NCBI RefSeq assembly: GCF_055900595.2
Contig: NZ_CM148325.1
DNA: 64,000 nucleotides
Strand: one strand, 5' to 3'
Every line of letters starts with the position of its first letter. Position 1 is the stretch's first letter. Of the stretch, positions 3,064 to 51,179 are shown in pieces. Position numbers and translations under genes: made by a program. Below the pieces are notes generated by a model. That model was not told the origin of the DNA, searched no databases, and was given only the letters and a program-made list of their open reading frames with translations.

Positions 3064-3420
3064 GTGGGCGAAGTCAAACATCAGAATGGAAGGCATCCCG
3101 GGATCGGCAAAGAAGCAGCAATGGCGCTTTATATTGACATCAGCGCCATTGCCGGACAGGTAAGAATTATCAGAGCGGTAACTAAGCGGTATGTGCCTTT
3201 ACTTCAGAAAGGCTCCGGTGATTACACCGAAGATATTGTCAACGATTTCCTCATCGAATTGCGAGGACTCATCTTCAGTTACAAGGTGACCACAATTTTT
3301 GCAGATGGCTCCCGCGAAACTGTCAGAGCCCTGCGGCTTAAAGGATGTGTCGAAGACTTCGCCACCACATTCTGGGCAAGAAAACTTGATTGTATTCATA
3401 ACCAATTTCCTCTCGGGTAA
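3064..3420 (+). CDS. Hypothetical protein, first ORF downstream of candidate PL (N-gene position); mutually exclusive with the antisense ORF 3199-3399
   Basis: GTG start with AGAGGA RBS 7 nt upstream; 118 aa; orientation fits the rightward early operon; no recognisable family. Confidence 0.35.
   Translation: MGEVKHQNGRHPGIGKEAAMALYIDISAIAGQVRIIRAVTKRYVPLLQKGSGDYTEDIVNDFLIELRGLIFSYKVTTIFADGSRETVRALRLKGCVEDFATTFWARKLDCIHNQFPLG
3199..3399 (-). CDS. Small zinc-ribbon protein (CPECGG...CKNCGH), candidate moron; mutually exclusive with 3064-3420
   Basis: ATG at 3399 with AGAGGA RBS 8 nt upstream; two CxxC pairs 17 residues apart; 66 aa. Confidence 0.4.
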   Translation of the reverse strand: MNTIKFSCPECGGEVFDTSFKPQGSDSFAGAICKNCGHLVTEDESSQFDEEIVDNIFGVITGAFLK

Positions 3421-4016
3421 CAGACCCCTCAGAGGATACCACCTCGCCTGACGTGGTTAAAAGCAGGCACACAACACGAAAGCGCACGGCGAGGTAGCTG
3501 GTTCATATATAGCCTGTCGTTAAATTTTCGTCGACCGTGCGCTTCCGGTTGTGGCACTCCGCGAAATGGCGCGGCGGTAAGCATGGCGGGGTTCCCTTCC
3601 CCTTGAGGACACCGGGTTGTCAGGTTGACCATGCGCCTGAGTGACAACCCCGCTGCAACGCCCTCTGTTATCAATTTTCTGGTGACGTTTGGCGGTATCA
3701 GTTTTACTCCGTGACTGCTCTGCCGCCCTTTTTAAAGTGAATTTTGTGATGTGGTGAATGCGGCTCAGCGCACGCGGAACAGTTAAAACCAAAAACAGAG
3801 TTATGGGTGGATTCTCTGTATCCGGCGTTAATTGTTAACTGGTTAACGTCACCTGGAGGCACCTGGCACCGCATCAACAAAGTTCACTTCGGTGATGAAA
3901 GGTAAGAGAAAATGTTGAATGTAGCTATTGAAAACCAGTACGGGTGGAATTATAGTGCACCTGCACCTCATAAAACGGGTGCCGGGCGTGGAAACCCGAA
4001 AGTTACTCGAGCGCAT

Positions 4017-4039
4017 AACCGCGCCGAAGCGGTTTTTTT
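4017..4039 (+). terminator. Candidate rho-independent terminator upstream of the Rha gene
   Basis: AACCGC-GCCGAA-GCGGTT hairpin followed by TTTTT. Confidence 0.4.
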
Positions 4040-4208
4040 ATGCGTAATGCACAGCCACATTCAGATAATGGTGGGGCGTGCAGGGCAGCTGCAAGGCTGG
4101 CCGGGTTCTCGAGTGACCGGTATTTCCACCCCTGTACGTCTCGCCACCCTTATGGTCGTGGAAAGCCTCGGTGGTGAGTTAATTAACTTAACACTTGAGG
4201 ATGCCATC

Positions 4209-4760
4209 ATGGCTACTACCCTTACCCTTTCTCACCCTGACGTAACCATTGAAAATGGTCGCGCTGTCACTACGTCTATTGCGATCGCAGAATTCTTCGG
4301 CAAGCAGCATCACCATGTTGTTCAAAAAATAGAGGCCCTCGAATGTTCTGAACGCTTTTTAACCAGCAACTTTTCGCGGGTTAAATTCGAGCACCGTGGC
4401 AATACCTACAATGCCTACCAAATCACCAAAAACGGCTTCGTTTTCCTGGTGATGGGCTTCACCGGCAAAAAGGCCGCTGCATTCAAGGAAGCCTACATTG
4501 CCGAGTTCGACCGCATGGAGGAAGAACTGCGCCGGAATAACACCACACCCGCTGACAAAATAATCCCGGGTGATGGCCGCACCCTGGTTATCCGCTTCGA
4601 CGAACACGGCTACATCAAATTCACCGAAACCGTTCCTGATGGCGCACTGGTCTGTACTCTGGATACTTTCCGTTTTTATCTGGAAAAGCAGGGATGGACT
4701 CTCATAAACCGGGGCGCAATTAAAAATATGACCGTCGAGCAGTTGCTGAGTATTAAATAG
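4209..4760 (+). CDS. Phage regulatory protein, Rha family (antirepressor-like)
   Basis: N-terminus TTSIAIAEFFGKQHHHVVQKI matches Rha-domain signature; GAGGA RBS before ATG 4209; in-frame ORF is open upstream to 3912, so the start is uncertain. Confidence 0.6.
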   Translation: MATTLTLSHPDVTIENGRAVTTSIAIAEFFGKQHHHVVQKIEALECSERFLTSNFSRVKFEHRGNTYNAYQITKNGFVFLVMGFTGKKAAAFKEAYIAEFDRMEEELRRNNTTPADKIIPGDGRTLVIRFDEHGYIKFTETVPDGALVCTLDTFRFYLEKQGWTLINRGAIKNMTVEQLLSIK

Positions 4761-4805: not shown

Positions 4806-5027
4806 ATGATTGCTCATCACTTCGGAACCGATGAAATACCACGCCAGTGCGTCACTCCCGGCGATTACGTTATTTACGAAGGCCGGACATATGTTGCATC
4901 GGCAAACAATATCGAAAAGCAAAAACTTTATATCCGTGATTTCACTACAAAAACATGCATTACTGACCGCATGATTAAAGTCTTCCTCGGTCGTGATGGT
5001 TTACCTGTAAAGGCGGAGGCATGGTGA
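4806..5027 (+). CDS. Hypothetical small phage protein
   Basis: ATG preceded by AAGGAG at 7-nt spacing; 73 aa; no recognisable family. Confidence 0.55.
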
Positions 5028-5146: not shown

Positions 5147-7600
5147 ATGAGCACTGATAAAGAAACTTTTGCGCTATATTGCGAAGCTAAAAATGACAAA
5201 GTCAGAAAACGCCTTGGGATTAAAGGTGGTTTTTACTGGACTACAGCAAAAAAATTATCTGTTGCCATCTCCCGCTGCATTACCGCAATGGATGATAACG
5301 ATTATGATGAAGACGACTTTAAAAAACCTGTTCGCGTCCATTTGCCCGTTGTTGATGACCTTCCACCGGAAGGCGTGTTTGATACCGAATTCTGTAACCG
5401 GTATGAAAAAGGCGGCGAAGATGGCATCACAATGATATTTATCGCGCCTCCGCCATCCGCGCAGGACAAACCAGCCAGCACTGACAACACCAATGTTAAT
5501 GGCGAAGACATGACTGAGATTGAGGAGAATATGCTTCTGCCGGTTTCAGGTCAGATTCTGCCTGTTCGCTGGCTGGCGCAACACAGCGGCGAAAAACCAG
5601 TAACGCACGTTTCGCGGGATGAACTGCGCTCATTACATAACGCACAGGAAGAAAAACTTCCCGCCGTTACCGCGCTGGCCATCTCAAATAAAGCAGCGCA
5701 ACTCGAACCGCTGGAGATTCGGGATTTGTACAAACTGGTGCGGGACACTGACAAAGTTTTTCCCGCCCCCGTAAATTCAGACCTGGGACTGATGACCTCC
5801 TTCATCGAAGCATACCTGGACGCTGACTACACTGATCGTGGTCTGCTTACAAAAGAGTGGATGAAAGGAAATCGTGTTTCTCGCATCAGTCGCACACCAT
5901 CCGGCGCTAACGCTGGCGGCGGTATTCTTACCGATCGCGGCGAAGGTTTTGTGCATGATAATGCGTCAATGGCATTCGATGTTGCTACAGGAAAACTGGC
6001 TCGTTCGATGGATGTGGATATTTACAACATGCATCCTTCACATACCAGACGTGTTAACGAAATTATCGCAGAAAATGATCCCTGTTTCTCCGTCTTCCTT
6101 AAGGCTTTTCTGAACATGCCAGGCGGGATGGATTATTCCCGCGCCATCGTGGTTGCCTCCGTGAAAGAAGCACCGGTTGGTATAGAGGCTATGCCCCACC
6201 GCGTCACCGAATACCTGAATAAAGTGCTGACCGAAACCGATCATGCCAACCCTGATCCGGAAATCGTGGATATTGCCTGCGGTCGTTCCTCTGCCCCAAT
6301 GCCGCAGCGTGTAACAGAAGAAGGAAAACAGGATGATGAAGAAAAACCGCAACCGTCTGGCGCAATGGCAGATGAACAGCCAACGACTGAAACAGTGGAA
6401 CCGGATACAACTGAACATCATCCGGACACGCAGCCGCTGGATGCTCAGCCGCAGGTGAATTCTGTTGATGCGAAATATCAGAAACTGCGGGCAGAACTCC
6501 ATGAATCCCGGAAAAACATTCCGCCCCAAAATCCTGTCGACGAAGACAAATTGCTGGCAACCTCTGGCGGAGAATTTGCTGAAGGGATTAGCGACCCGAA
6601 TGATCCGAAATGGGTGAAGGGGATTGAAACCCGCGATTCTGTGAACCAGAACCAGCAAGAATCGGAACAGAACGACCAGAAAGCGGAAAAAAACAGCCAA
6701 AATGCGTTACAAAACGAGCCAGAAACGAAACAATCCGAACCAGTAGCGCAACAGGAACCGGAAAAAGTCTGCACCATCTGCGGTCAGAGCGGTGTCGGCA
6801 ACTGTCCTGATTGTGGCGTGGTGATGGGCGACGCAACATACCAGGAAATGTTCGATGAAGATAATCAGCCTGAAGTTCAGGAAAATGATCCAGAGGAAAT
6901 GGAAGGCTCTGCGCATCAGAACAAGGAGAACTCTGGCGGCAATCAGCATCATGCCAGCGATAGTGAAACTGGCGAGACGGCAAATCCCTTAATTAAGATA
7001 ACCAGTCATCACAAATATAAGTCCACAAGCAAAACGTGGTATCACCTGATGATCGACCTTGAAACAATGGGAACCAACACCAATGCACCCATAGTAGTTA
7101 TTGGTGCGGTTTTCTTCGACCCGGAAACAGGGGAAATCGGGCCGGTATTTTATATCGTTATCAGCCTGACTGACGCAATGAATACAGGGGCTGTTCCTGA
7201 TGGTGGCACCATCGAATGGTGGCTGAAGCAGTCCAGCGAAGCCAGAGCTGCCATTTTAACTGACCAGGTAAAAATGAAAGATGCCCTTTTGCGTTTTCGG
7301 GAATTCGTCAATGAACACTCTGATGAAAAATTCGTTCAGGTGTGGGGTAATGGCGCAACGTTCGATAACGCAATTTTGCGCACCTCATACGAACGTCTGG
7401 ACATCCCCTGTCCGTGGCATTACAGCAACGATCGTGATGTACGCACAATCGTTGAGATGGGGAAAATCACAGACTTCAATGCCAGAAGCGTAATTCCATT
7501 CGAAGGCGTGCGCCATAATGCTCTGGATGACGCTCTTCACCAGGCAAAATACGTAACAGCCGCTATACAAAAACTGATCCCGAATCAGGCTGATTTTTAA
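5147..7600 (+). CDS. Exonuclease: RecE (exonuclease VIII) N-terminal-region homolog fused to a C-terminal DnaQ-like DEDDh 3-prime-5-prime exonuclease domain
   Basis: 817 aa; middle region ([19 protein letters not shown]...[43 protein letters not shown]) matches the RecE N-terminal part as recalled; C-terminus has [15 protein letters not shown] and HNALDDA motifs; acidic linker with CTICG-x7-CPDCG zinc-ribbon-like motif. Confidence 0.75.
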
Positions 7601-7664
7601 TGTTCAACCCCGGTCGTCGCCCACCGGCTATAGTGGCGGCGACCATGATTAGCGAACGACGCTC

Positions 7665-7913
7665 ATGGCAAGACTTATTCTGCTCACTGAGTGGGCAAAA
7701 GAGGAATTCAGTGAACCGGTCCCTAGTCCGGGTACGTTAAGTAAATACGCTAAAGCCGGAATGATATTTCCTCTCCCCAAAAAAGTAGGAAGGCACTGGC
7801 GAGTGGATCCACGCGCTCGCTTTGTCGGAATGGTAAACAAGCCGGAGGTGATCGCCACAGATCACCCTGCTTTGAAGAGGATACTGGAAGATGGCGCGCC
7901 CGCGAAAATATAA
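7665..7913 (+). CDS. xis: Excisionase (lambda Xis-like)
   Basis: 82-aa ORF overlapping the int start; LTEW...IFPLPKKVGRHWRV resembles lambda Xis. Confidence 0.55.
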   Translation: MARLILLTEWAKEEFSEPVPSPGTLSKYAKAGMIFPLPKKVGRHWRVDPRARFVGMVNKPEVIATDHPALKRILEDGAPAKI

Positions 7914-9021
7914 AACCGATGTTCCGGGTTTATCTCCGTATTTTGACAAAAGAAATAACAAAGTTTACTGGCGTTACAGGCATCCCATCACAGGTAAAAA
8001 TCATGGACTCGGCAGTATTGACCAGAAACTGGCGGAAACCATTGCAGCAGAAGCGAACAGCCGTCTTGCCAGACAACAAATGGAGCAAATGCTCAGTCTG
8101 CAGGAGAAAATTATTAGTGATACCGGCGGCGCATCAACCGTTTCCATTTTTCTGAATAATTACAGAAAAATTCAACAGGAAAGATATGAGAACGGAGAGA
8201 TCAAACTCAGCACGCTGAAGCAAAAAGCGGCTCCTCTCAGGGTGTTTGATGAACGTTTTGGAGCCAGGCCGCTAGATGCCATAACCGTAAAAGATGTGGT
8301 ATCGGTGCTGGAAGAATACAAGGCAAAGGGACATAACAGAATGGGACAAATTTTCAGGAAGGTATTGATCGATGTTTTCCGGGAGGCTCAACAAACGGGT
8401 GATGTTCCGCCAGGCTTTAACCCGGCTGAATCGGCAAAAAAACCGCAAGTGCGGATATCAAGACAGCGACTGACTTTTGATGAGTGGATGATGATTTATA
8501 ACGCAGCGGAAAAGGATGGTTACTTTTTACAGCGCGGCATGCTGCTGGCACTGATGACGGGCCAGCGTCTTTCGGATATTTGCAAAATGCAGTTTTCGGA
8601 TATCCGGGATGGTTACCTTCATGTCGAACAGCAAAAAACAGGAGCCCGGATAGCCATTCCTCTGGCTCTGCGTTGCGACAAATTAAATCTTACCCTGGGT
8701 GACGTGGTGTCATCCTGTCGTGATTACATCCTTAGTCCGTGGTTATTGCACCATCATCACGCTAAGGGGATGGGTAAGCGCGGCGGGATGGTTAAACCAG
8801 CAACATTAACAGTCGCATTTAAAAAAGCCCGGGATTCTGTGGATTACAACTGGCGTGCTAATGGCACGCCACCCTCTTTCCATGAGCAAAGATCTTTATC
8901 AGAACGATTGTTCAGAGAACAGGGAATTGATACCAAAATTTTGCTGGGCCATTCGAATCAAAAAATGACCGATATTTACAACGACGCACGCGGTAAAGAG
9001 TGGAAAAAACTGGTTATTTGA
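7891..9021 (+). CDS. int: Tyrosine recombinase, lambda-family integrase
   Basis: 376 aa; conserved R...HxxR...Y catalytic region (GQRLSDICKMQFSDI, FHEQRSLSERLF, LLGHSNQKMTDIY) similar to lambda Int. Confidence 0.85.
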   Translation: MARPRKYKTDVPGLSPYFDKRNNKVYWRYRHPITGKNHGLGSIDQKLAETIAAEANSRLARQQMEQMLSLQEKIISDTGGASTVSIFLNNYRKIQQERYENGEIKLSTLKQKAAPLRVFDERFGARPLDAITVKDVVSVLEEYKAKGHNRMGQIFRKVLIDVFREAQQTGDVPPGFNPAESAKKPQVRISRQRLTFDEWMMIYNAAEKDGYFLQRGMLLALMTGQRLSDICKMQFSDIRDGYLHVEQQKTGARIAIPLALRCDKLNLTLGDVVSSCRDYILSPWLLHHHHAKGMGKRGGMVKPATLTVAFKKARDSVDYNWRANGTPPSFHEQRSLSERLFREQGIDTKILLGHSNQKMTDIYNDARGKEWKKLVI

Positions 9022-9066: not shown

Positions 9067-9705
9067 TTAGAAGCGGTATCCGGCAGAGAACATAAACACC
9101 CACGGATCCAGTCGTACCGCGTCTTTCACGGGGGTTCCATTAAATTTATAGCTGGCGGTGGTGTCGATATCCATGTACCAGACTGACATGTTCACCAACC
9201 AGTCACGGTTAATCAGATAATCAACCCCCACCTGCCCGGCAGCTCCCCAGGAGTCTTTCAGACTGAGATCGGAAAGTCCCGCCTCTTTGCCATGATCGTT
9301 GAATCCATTATCAAAGAAGGTGGTGTAGTTAATACCTGCCCCAACGTAAGGACGGAATTTGCTGCTGGCATCACCAAAATACCACTGCGCCATCAGTGTT
9401 GGCGGCAGATGATGAACGGTTGCAATATCGCCGGTCGCCCGGGTGCCGATTTTATGGCGGAACGGCGTCGCTGCCAGCAATTCCACACCAATGTTATCGG
9501 TCGCCATATAAGTAAACGTCAGGCCCAGTTGCGTGTTATTGGTCACGCTGAATCCACCCAGACTTCCTAACGTACCACCAGCACCTTCTGTTGGACGTAC
9601 GGTTGCAGAACCTGCACGCATAAAAAATTCGCCTGCTTCATGCGCAAAGGCACTGCCAGAGAGAAGAGTTGTTACTGCCAAAGCCGCCACTGTTAACTTT
9701 TTCAT
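9067..9705 (-). CDS. ompW: Outer membrane protein W
   Basis: 212-aa product from MKKLTVAALAVTTLLSGSAFA signal peptide; GGAG RBS before ATG 9705. Confidence 0.9.
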   Translation of the reverse strand: MKKLTVAALAVTTLLSGSAFAHEAGEFFMRAGSATVRPTEGAGGTLGSLGGFSVTNNTQLGLTFTYMATDNIGVELLAATPFRHKIGTRATGDIATVHHLPPTLMAQWYFGDASSKFRPYVGAGINYTTFFDNGFNDHGKEAGLSDLSLKDSWGAAGQVGVDYLINRDWLVNMSVWYMDIDTTASYKFNGTPVKDAVRLDPWVFMFSAGYRF

Positions 9706-9808
9706 ATCCGCTCCGTCGTTATGGTTATAAAAACGTGACGAATATACCCACATTGGAGTAACAAATGATCCTACATAGATCACATTACATATGATAATTC
9801 ACCCTTTA

Positions 9809-33903: not shown

Positions 33904-33988
<85 letters not shown>

Positions 33989-34022
33989 TCTCAAGCATTA
34001 CATCAAAATTTGAATTATCCCT

Positions 34023-34107
<85 letters not shown>

Positions 34108-34463
34108 TCACTTTCAAAAGTTCCTGAAATCCCCAACAAATCCACAATTAAATATTCTGCCCATGCGGGGAAGGATGAGAAGCTTCGACTAAGGTTCGAC
34201 TCGAGCGCCAGCGAGAGAGCGTTGCCGCAGGCAACGACCCGTAGGGCGAAGCGCGCAGCGCTGAGTAATCCTTCCCCCACCACCATCACTTTCAAAAACC
34301 CCTGTATTCTCCAACGAATCCGTAACTGAATATTCTGCCCATGCGGGGAAGGATGAGAAGCTTCGACTAAGGTTCGACTCGAGCGCCAGCGAGAGAGCAT
34401 TGCCGCAGGCAACGACCCGTAGGGCGAAGCGCGCAGCGCTGAGTAATCCTTCCCCACCACCAT
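34108..34463 (+). repeat. Two tandem 178-bp repeat units downstream of the tRNA-Tyr genes (rtT / tpr region)
   Basis: Near-identical units at 34108-34285 and 34286-34463, each ending in the tRNA 3-prime-end-like AATCCTTCCCCCACCACCA. Confidence 0.7.
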
Positions 34464-50285: not shown

Positions 50286-50577
50286 CAGTTATATCTCCTC
50301 CGATGACAGAAATCGGGGGAGATAATATAAATTCCTGCTTATTGTATTTCTTCATACTACCTGAACAGGTCGTTAATCAGAATTGCGAGCCTGTACCACA
50401 ACCTGCACGAAACCACTGCAACAGCTGTTGAAAAGCCGGAATGTACTCTTTATTGCAAACATTTCAGGGATGAAGTGAAGATGAATTGAGACGTAATATC
50501 CACACCAAGCCGGCGTTATCCGGTGAGGCGCAATGTTGCGGGGGCTTTATCCCTGGTGGCATTGGTTGCTGGAAAGA

Positions 50578-50644
50578 GAAAACCCCCCGCACGTTGAGAG
50601 GTAAAACCTGACAACAGAACGGGGGCTAATCTTGAACCATCAAC
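50578..50644 (-). ncRNA. rdl: Rdl antisense RNA, copy 1 (position inferred)
   Basis: Placed 48-114 bp upstream of the ldr ATG on the opposite strand, from recalled K-12 ldr/rdl geometry; minus-strand sequence ends in GC-rich stem (GCCCCCG...CGGGGGG) plus UUUUC. Confidence 0.45.
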
Positions 50645-50691
50645 AATTCAAGAATAGCTGCAAAATGTTGTCATTACAACAAGGCGGCTAT

Positions 50692-50799
50692 ATGACGCTC
50701 GCGCAGTTTGCCATGATTTTCTGGCACGACCTGGCGGCACCGATCCTGGCGGGGATTATTACCGCAGTGATTGTCAGCTGGTGGCGTAACCGGAAGTAA
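50692..50799 (+). CDS. ldr: Ldr type I toxin peptide, 35 aa
   Basis: MTLAQFAMIFWHDLAAPILAGIITAVIVSWWRNRK; terminator hairpin GCCGCAGG-GGTAACAG-CCTGCGGC plus T-run at about 50850-50883. Confidence 0.85.
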   Translation: MTLAQFAMIFWHDLAAPILAGIITAVIVSWWRNRK

Positions 50800-51112
50800 G
50801 GTGAAAACGGGCGTCAGGCTGCCGTGATGGCAATATGCGCCCGAAACCAGCCGCAGGGGTAACAGCCTGCGGCCTTTTTTGTCTTTATCTCTTCTGCAAG
50901 TAAATATTGGCAACCCGAGCTGGAAGCATCATCCAGAGCACTCATGAAACGACTGTAACAACTGTTGAAAAACCGGAATGCACTCTTCATTGCAAACATT
51001 TCAGGGATGAAGTGAAGATGAATTGAGACGTAGTATCCACACCAAGCCGGAGTTATCCGGTGAGGCGCAATGTTGCGGGGGCTCTATCCCTGGTGGCATT
51101 GGTTGCTGGAAA

Positions 51113-51179
51113 GAGAAAACCCCCGCACGTTGAGAGGTACAACCTGACAACAGAACGGGGGCTAATCTTGAAACCAGAC
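51113..51179 (-). ncRNA. rdl: Rdl antisense RNA, copy 2 (position inferred)
   Basis: Same relative position and near-identical sequence to copy 1. Confidence 0.45.

Follow-up and report, generated by a model that had tools for sequence, protein, structure and literature searches.

The window analysed here (64,000 nucleotides of contig NZ_CM148325.1, assembly GCF_055900595.2) is a piece of Escherichia coli chromosome with a lambdoid prophage inserted beside ompW. One open reading frame (ORF) of this prophage, on the + strand at 5147..7600 (ATG start, 817 codons, no internal stops; stop codon included in the coordinates), encodes an 817-aa protein in which the N-terminal and central parts of RecE, the exodeoxyribonuclease VIII of the Rac prophage, are followed by a DEDDh exonuclease domain at the place of the PD-(D/E)XK nuclease of RecE. 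The DNA of the gene was 100% identical in E. coli GF4, where the product is annotated as “exonuclease” (WP_225103324.1). From the N-terminus onwards, and all on the + strand, the protein comprises a small alpha/beta subdomain (residues 1-100; 5147..5446), a helical domain of the RecE family (residues 121-390; 5507..6316), an acidic and mostly disordered central region or linker with two short helices at residues 439-473 (residues 391-632; 6317..7042), and a DnaQ-like DEDDh domain of the Rv2179c/DexA family, predicted to be a 3'-5' exonuclease (residues 633-817; 7043..7597).

Composition of the fused protein

A RecE-like N-terminal region joined to a DnaQ-like domain had been proposed in the initial annotation, and both halves of this proposal were borne out. 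Residues 58-616 were 69% identical to residues 50-591 of K-12 RecE (BLASTP; RecE taken from the Rac prophage), with 69-72% identity over residues 121-390. Pfam Exonuc_VIII (PF06630) covered residues 57-189 (E=1.7e-25), and the NCBIfam RecE equivalog NF007259 was matched at profile positions 1-620 of 877, positions 621-877 being unmatched; the score (1016.4 bits) was under the curated cut-off of 1269, and by score the protein is thus outside the RecE equivalog. RecE beyond its residue 591, nuclease domain included, did not align with the 817-aa protein (BLASTP), and DNA homology to Rac recE stopped at window position 6993, that is, at residue 616 (blastn). The module junction was placed accordingly at residues 616/617 (6992..6996, + strand; blastn and BLASTP). 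Pfam DUF3799, the PD-(D/E)XK family, had no match in the protein, and no RecE-type nuclease was found at its C-terminus.

In the full-length model the helical domain (residues 121-390) had pLDDT (predicted local distance difference test) values above 90; a search for solved fold relatives of the N-terminal domain gave none. Values fell below 50 at residues 394-437, 491-538 and 561-625, and throughout residues 391-632 aspartate and glutamate were far in excess of lysine and arginine. This linker carries a putative zinc-knuckle-like motif, CTICG-x6-CPDCG (residues 542-557; 6770..6817, + strand), with moderate pLDDT (about 70). The initial annotation had located it properly (about 6770-6820), but with a spacer of seven residues instead of six, and had presented it, as a zinc-ribbon-like motif, among the features of the hybrid. 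The motif was also present in K-12 RecE (CNACGQTGGDNCPDCG, RecE 515-530) and in 6 of 87 diverged family representatives, one PD-(D/E)XK member among them; it was therefore rejected as a hallmark of the hybrid, and is a lineage feature of the linker.

The C-terminal domain matched the Rv2179c-like family (PF16473) at residues 633-805 (E=1.5e-67; model positions 2-175 of 177; Pfam), and the motifs quoted in the initial annotation were in place: DLETMG (residues 637-642), WGNGATFDN (residues 733-741) and HNALDDA (residues 790-796). D637, E639, D740, H790 and D795 aligned with the DEDDh residues of T4 DexA, mEp460 gp26 and the phage Evi homologue, and these five residues were retained in 13-15 of 15 fused members whose overall identity was only 20-40%. 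The domain had the RNase H-like DEDD fold. T4 DexA (8KEL/8KEN) was the sole sequence match in the PDB (E=1.6e-8), whereas the fold was as near to RNase T, REXO2/Orn and Cap18, which is associated with CBASS (cyclic oligonucleotide-based antiphage signalling system), as to DexA. The fold by itself does not discriminate a DNA from an RNA substrate; DNA is favoured because the closest sequence relative is DexA and because the domain is fused to the scaffold of a DNA enzyme. The protein is, very probably, an active metal-dependent 3'-5' DNA exonuclease.

The same evidence bears on a different possibility, a counter-defence or RNA/oligonucleotide exonuclease that would be made soon after induction and would destroy a nucleic acid of host immunity (retron multicopy single-stranded DNA, reverse transcriptase cDNA or oligonucleotide signals, for example), or trim the 3' ends of RNA. 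The equal nearness of the fold to RNases and to DexA, the exoribonuclease activity of the founder of PF16473 and the presumed expression from an early operon would all agree with such a function, as would the exchange of a recombination nuclease without a partner, which suggests a use of the N-terminal module outside RecT-coupled resection. By sequence, the nearest match is nevertheless a DNA exonuclease, DexA, and the fused region, being common to a double-stranded DNA exonuclease, argues for a DNA context; we regard this function as rather improbable.

Prophage setting and absence of an annealing protein

The locus is the early-left (pL-type) operon of a Rac/Qin-like phage. On the + strand, a cI-like repressor gene (2411-2869) is followed by a 118-aa ORF (3064-3420; phrog_21318, E=2e-61; annotated by the NCBI pipeline PGAP), three RNAs in a row (DicF, isrK and C4 antisense RNA; Rfam, 3677-3728, 3963-4039 and 4064-4151), a Rha-family regulator, which is the only other ORF of at least 150 aa between the repressor and xis, the FtsZ inhibitor gene kil (4806..5027; phrog_294, E=6e-34; 89% DNA identity to Rac kilR; also in PGAP), the exonuclease gene, xis (7665..7913; phrog_629, E=2e-34; “excisionase” in PGAP) and the integrase gene (7891..9021; PHROGs integrase families and PGAP). 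The integrase marks the end of the prophage, which adjoins ompW (9067-9783, - strand). Genes for cro and replication run in the opposite direction. Kil lies directly upstream of the exonuclease gene, in the same operon, and xis directly downstream. No promoter-like site above chance was found between kil and the exonuclease gene in the promoter/terminator scan, whose counts were at chance level, and the gene was therefore read as part of the repressed early-left operon. Between the exonuclease stop and the xis start, the hairpin at 7612-7644 (-24 kcal/mol, GC-rich) did not differ significantly from shuffled sequences (z=-1.6) and had no T-run.

The statement that no annealing protein lies next to the exonuclease held for the ORFs of the window, for PHROGs and for the PGAP annotation of GF4, and re-annotation brought no adjacent gene for a single-strand annealing protein (SSAP) to light. 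Proteins of the RecT, Bet, Erf and Rad52 types were absent among the neighbours (PHROGs scan), no SSAP was present in the PGAP annotation of the whole ~28-kb GF4 copy of the prophage, and none was encoded at about 14 related loci examined. Genes against RecBCD (Gam, GamL, Abc2, MuGam) were likewise absent from the scanned early-left ORFs and from the GF4 annotation, a scan which did not exhaustively cover small unannotated ORFs. The locus has, then, neither the contiguous SSAP gene nor the anti-RecBCD gene of a lambdoid Rec module, and the place immediately downstream, which recT takes in the case of RecE, is occupied by xis and the integrase gene.

In lambdoid phages that lack a Rec module (a nuclease with an SSAP, with or without SSB and anti-RecBCD proteins), correctly oriented Chi sites are enriched and RecBCD of the host is used; DnaQ-type nuclease genes occur close to int and are not included in the Rec module (PMC12315714). 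In the GF4 prophage, Chi (GCTGGTGG) occurred seven times on the strand of the late genes and once on the opposite strand, with no site inside the early-left operon, a pattern which fits the Chi-rich class without a Rec module but is not strong evidence for it. The GF4 copy itself (NZ_CP172217.1 921782-950168; ~28.4 kb) has a truncated portal gene, lacks most head and tail genes and has a partial ompW flank; it is a defective prophage. Base-for-base identity between the window and GF4 failed outside the exonuclease gene.

Other features of the region were also recorded. A 68-aa ORF with a CxxC...CxxC pattern (3199-3405, - strand; phrog_4852, E=1e-9; not in PGAP) overlaps the 118-aa ORF in antisense, and a 46-aa ORF (7600-7740), which is not annotated in GF4, overlaps the hairpin between the exonuclease stop and xis. 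The isrK and C4 RNAs fall inside the 282-aa “Rha family” ORF of PGAP (3912-4760); translation from the ATG at 4209 within this ORF, which GAGGA precedes by 7 nt, would give a 183-aa Rha protein, and the annotated coding sequence is probably over-extended. This locus looks like an antirepressor switch of the P1 c4/ant type or of the Gifsy-1 isrK/anrP type. Further into the window were ordinary features of the chromosome: a tyrT-type locus at 33904-34462, in which a pair of tRNA genes precedes a pair of RtT repeats, and, at 50577-51179, two rdlD antitoxin RNAs belonging to ldr/rdl toxin-antitoxin loci.

Distribution and conservation

The initial annotation had called the arrangement unusual, and this did not hold. 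DNA of the exonuclease domain was found in 4213 of 5426 complete E. coli genomes, at 8982 places (median 2, maximum 8 per genome). A junction probe of 424 nt, spanning the boundary between linker and exonuclease in the common 814-aa form, was contiguously covered in 4042 of these genomes (74%), more than the number with DNA of the RecE nuclease and recT (1818 of 5426, ~33%). Among the RecE-like genes in E. coli prophages, the fusion predominates. More than 8000 relatives were present in the protein database; the best 120 all had the PF06630+PF16473 architecture, all came from E. coli or Shigella, and bore names such as “exonuclease”, “3'-5' exoribonuclease” and “RecE family exodeoxyribonuclease”. 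Full-length fused genes were also present in isolated phages (vB_EcoM-606R7, vB_EcoS-689R5, Evi and others) and in the PPompW prophages of enterohaemorrhagic E. coli. Many phage records carry the labels “exodeoxyribonuclease VIII”, “exonuclease VII” or “encoded by cryptic prophage CP-933P”, in spite of the absent RecE nuclease; such labels are annotation errors implying the wrong polarity.

The position of the gene was constant. One identical 814-aa protein was found in eight contexts differing in repressor, replication module, integrase and attachment site, always 3' of dicB-ydfD and 5' of xis-int and always without an SSAP; the same arrangement was seen in CFT073, at potC. The same held for distant members (only 34-38% identity) in metagenomes and in genomes of other enterobacteria: xis-int directly followed the exonuclease gene, and an SSAP was absent.

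When residues 58-390 were compared with 1.8 billion cluster representatives, 147 clusters were retrieved. Among 87 long family members, 18 had the DUF3799/PD-(D/E)XK nuclease, 15 the Rv2179c-like domain, and about 50 no recognised nuclease; these last probably correspond to the “RecE-2” proteins of PMC12315714. The fused architecture spanned 15 clusters at 50% identity.

In 3 of the 87 members one predicted polypeptide combines the RecE N-terminal region with a RecT domain (Pfam), and this is one of the observations in favour of a true recombination exonuclease, whose annealing partner would be encoded in another part of the prophage or by a different prophage. The gene sits in the RecE slot, several prophages per E. 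coli genome are common (the median of two domain copies), and the RecE region shared with the window protein improves linear-linear recombination (PMC11611040). A 3'-5' nuclease, however, would leave 5' overhangs, which are wrong for annealing of the RecT/Beta type, and neither the GF4 prophage nor the other loci examined encode an annotated SSAP. The part of RecE which binds RecT lies in the C-terminal nuclease domain, missing here. Resection of the RecET/Red type would be excluded by this absence together with the predicted polarity, and a recombination exonuclease with a distant partner is the least probable of the explanations considered.

Selection on the fused gene was estimated against an 84%-identical homologue (locus L009). 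The ratio of non-synonymous to synonymous substitution rates (dN/dS) was 0.15 for residues 58-390 (dS 0.68) and 0.16 for the exonuclease domain (residues 633-817; dS 1.66), with values of 0.44-0.52 in the disordered parts and linker. Both folded parts have thus been kept by purifying selection while joined, evidence against a dead fusion. Some observations do agree with a functionless relic, formed by accidental in-frame fusion of a Rac-like recE and a xis-adjacent DnaQ-type gene in decaying prophages: the GF4 prophage is defective, related copies carry interruptions or frameshifts, similarity to Rac recE breaks off sharply at residue 616, and stand-alone DnaQ-type genes lie directly upstream of xis in mEp460 and STEC309. 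Against these stand the dN/dS of about 0.15 in both folded parts over a dS of 0.7-1.7, the conservation of catalytic residues among members 20-40% identical, the 15 clusters sharing the architecture, the intact junction in 4042 genomes and the full-length gene in isolated phages. The relic is largely refuted, and very improbable.

Individual copies in cryptic prophages are broken. Two apparent stand-alone genes of 180-183 aa, near-identical to the domain, were considered as signs of recent domain exchange and rejected, both being fragmentary: a 183-aa copy, 91% identical (L024 737-3127), was a piece of an Evi-type fused gene with two frameshifts, and the second (L006 8803-9979) abutted an assembly gap and a truncated integrase gene. 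The latter suggests tandem or nested prophages.

Proposed function and comparison with known systems

The explanation preferred here is that of a modular protein, with a RecE-type N-terminal module, a long acidic disordered linker and a C-terminal DEDDh exonuclease, which would be made only after prophage induction, from pL as part of the early-left operon. The C-terminal domain would act on DNA with a free 3' end, removing nucleotides there through a two-metal hydrolysis that involves D637, E639, D740, H790 and D795, and the N-terminal module would supply the same targeting or assembly function as in RecE. The protein would work without a phage annealing protein and would not be a recombinase of the RecET/Red type; the phage lineage probably depends on recombination by host RecA and RecBCD-Chi, and in this context the ends of the DNA (3' tails) would be processed by the enzyme. 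An induced 3'-5' exonuclease for DNA ends in a RecBCD/RecA-dependent background is put forward with confidence and doubt in about equal parts, and its specific biological role with less assurance.

As a sequence feature the protein is already known and ordinary. The exact protein is in RefSeq, NCBI names such proteins “exonuclease” or “3'-5' exonuclease”, the PF06630+PF16473 architecture has thousands of database entries, and two papers of 2025 note nucleases of the DnaQ/DexA type in lambdoid phages and E. coli (PMC12315714, PMC12153337). The gene is worth keeping in view as roughly three quarters of the complete E. coli genomes have it and as it is under purifying selection; the label “exodeoxyribonuclease VIII” on phage records, besides the wrong polarity, implies a recombineering function that is almost certainly lacking. 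The interest rests mainly on what alternative nuclease pairings say about the N-terminal domain of RecE. This region pairs about equally with 5'-3' and with 3'-5' nucleases, RecT occurring only with the 5'-3' type, so that its role cannot be specific to RecT-coupled 5' resection, and this pairing constraint offers a simple handle on full-length RecE. The domain might even be a portable targeting module, able to direct nucleases of both polarities to a particular site (a DNA end, for instance, a replication intermediate or a complex of the host), and the DEDDh version would then have an undescribed early phage function. This is a long shot; if it were true, the DEDDh version could blunt 3' tails for loading of RecBCD on Chi-rich phage DNA, or degrade DNA with 3' ends that belongs to competitors or to the immune systems of the host. 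No literature linking RecE with the Rv2179c-like domain was found, nor any on a RecE-type exonuclease beside the excisionase gene in DicB-operon prophages or on the exonuclease of Qin ydfE.

DexA and its relatives are the systems against which the C-terminal domain can best be read. T4 DexA has a homologous DEDDh domain with the catalytic residues intact, at an identity of only ~30%. DexA and EcD (~180-230 aa) stand alone, while the domain of the window protein forms the end of an 817-aa chain. EcD, a DexA homologue of E. coli, digests T4 DNA but not unmodified double-stranded DNA and protects against T4 (PMC12153337). This precedent, together with the intact catalytic residues of the homologous window domain, would suit a prophage defence or superinfection-exclusion nuclease of the HREX/EcD kind, digesting the DNA of other phages (for instance with modified cytosine) and sparing that of the host, and the persistence of the fused gene in defective prophages points the same way. 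DicB and DicF, from the same type of operon, have also been linked to phage resistance. Several observations stand against it. W152 of DexA, which recognises 5-hydroxymethylcytosine, is replaced by Ser760, inside a well-aligned xxNDRD motif, and the position varied among the 15 fused members (W in 6, Y in 2, C in 2, others in the rest). D169 aligns with Phe777, with Asp776 one position off in a loop, leaving this second recognition residue uncertain. D90, of the DexA tetramer, is kept as D712 (D or E in 14 of the 15 fused members), where EcD has Ala78, and S87 aligns with K709. The residue pattern of HREX is thus absent. EcD (HAK9828821.1) is also stand-alone and of a different subfamily, judging by its ends as given by the primers of the paper (MIDTET... 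and ...TIPETYD); a scan of viral and genome contigs for EcD 20-mers gave one chance match in each set, in L020, without an exonuclease ORF, and in L023, an Acetatifactor metagenome-assembled genome. PADLOC-DB v2 gave no system-level match and a weak generic one (“DEDDh, Cas-associated”, E=4.5e-5, 22 bits), and the gene lies in a repressed early operon with no recognisable promoter of its own. Interference with host nucleases or a role in defence, as raised in the initial annotation, found no positive evidence, and a defence nuclease is considered unlikely.

M. tuberculosis Rv2179c, the founder of PF16473, differs further from the window protein, being a small stand-alone exoribonuclease without phage context; phmmer with the window protein failed to detect it. 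Stand-alone DnaQ-type nucleases of phages are closer. The gp26 protein of mEp460, encoded beside xis/int (PMC12315714), was 60% identical to the window domain, and versions of ~190 aa are encoded directly upstream of xis in mEp460 and STEC309; unlike the window protein, they have no RecE-like part, and their early-left genes are often others (YfdQ/YfdR-type).

Rac RecE (866 aa) is alike in the 69% identity over residues 58-616 and in its slot, after kil and before xis-int, and unlike in its 5'-3' PD-(D/E)XK nuclease (DUF3799, residues ~600-866), which is replaced here by the DEDDh domain and which gives it a polarity opposite to that expected of the window protein. The Rac prophage carries recE-recT-ralR-rcbA-xisR-intR; recT, ralR and rcbA are missing here.

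The 826-aa exonuclease of phage Evi resembles the window protein along residues ~440-817 of the latter (central region, zinc motif, linker and DEDDh domain), with 88.6% identity in the exonuclease domain and a similar kil/dicB-...-xis context, but its N-terminal ~400 residues are a distantly related variant (~20% identity). The pseudogene ydfE of the K-12 Qin prophage (b1577; L021 6079-6999), cut by IS2, encodes the first 255 residues of the Evi-type protein with 97% identity. The window protein was not similar at its N-terminus to K-12 YdfE, which corresponds instead to the start of the Evi type; at least two N-terminal variants are thus combined with the same central region and DEDDh domain.

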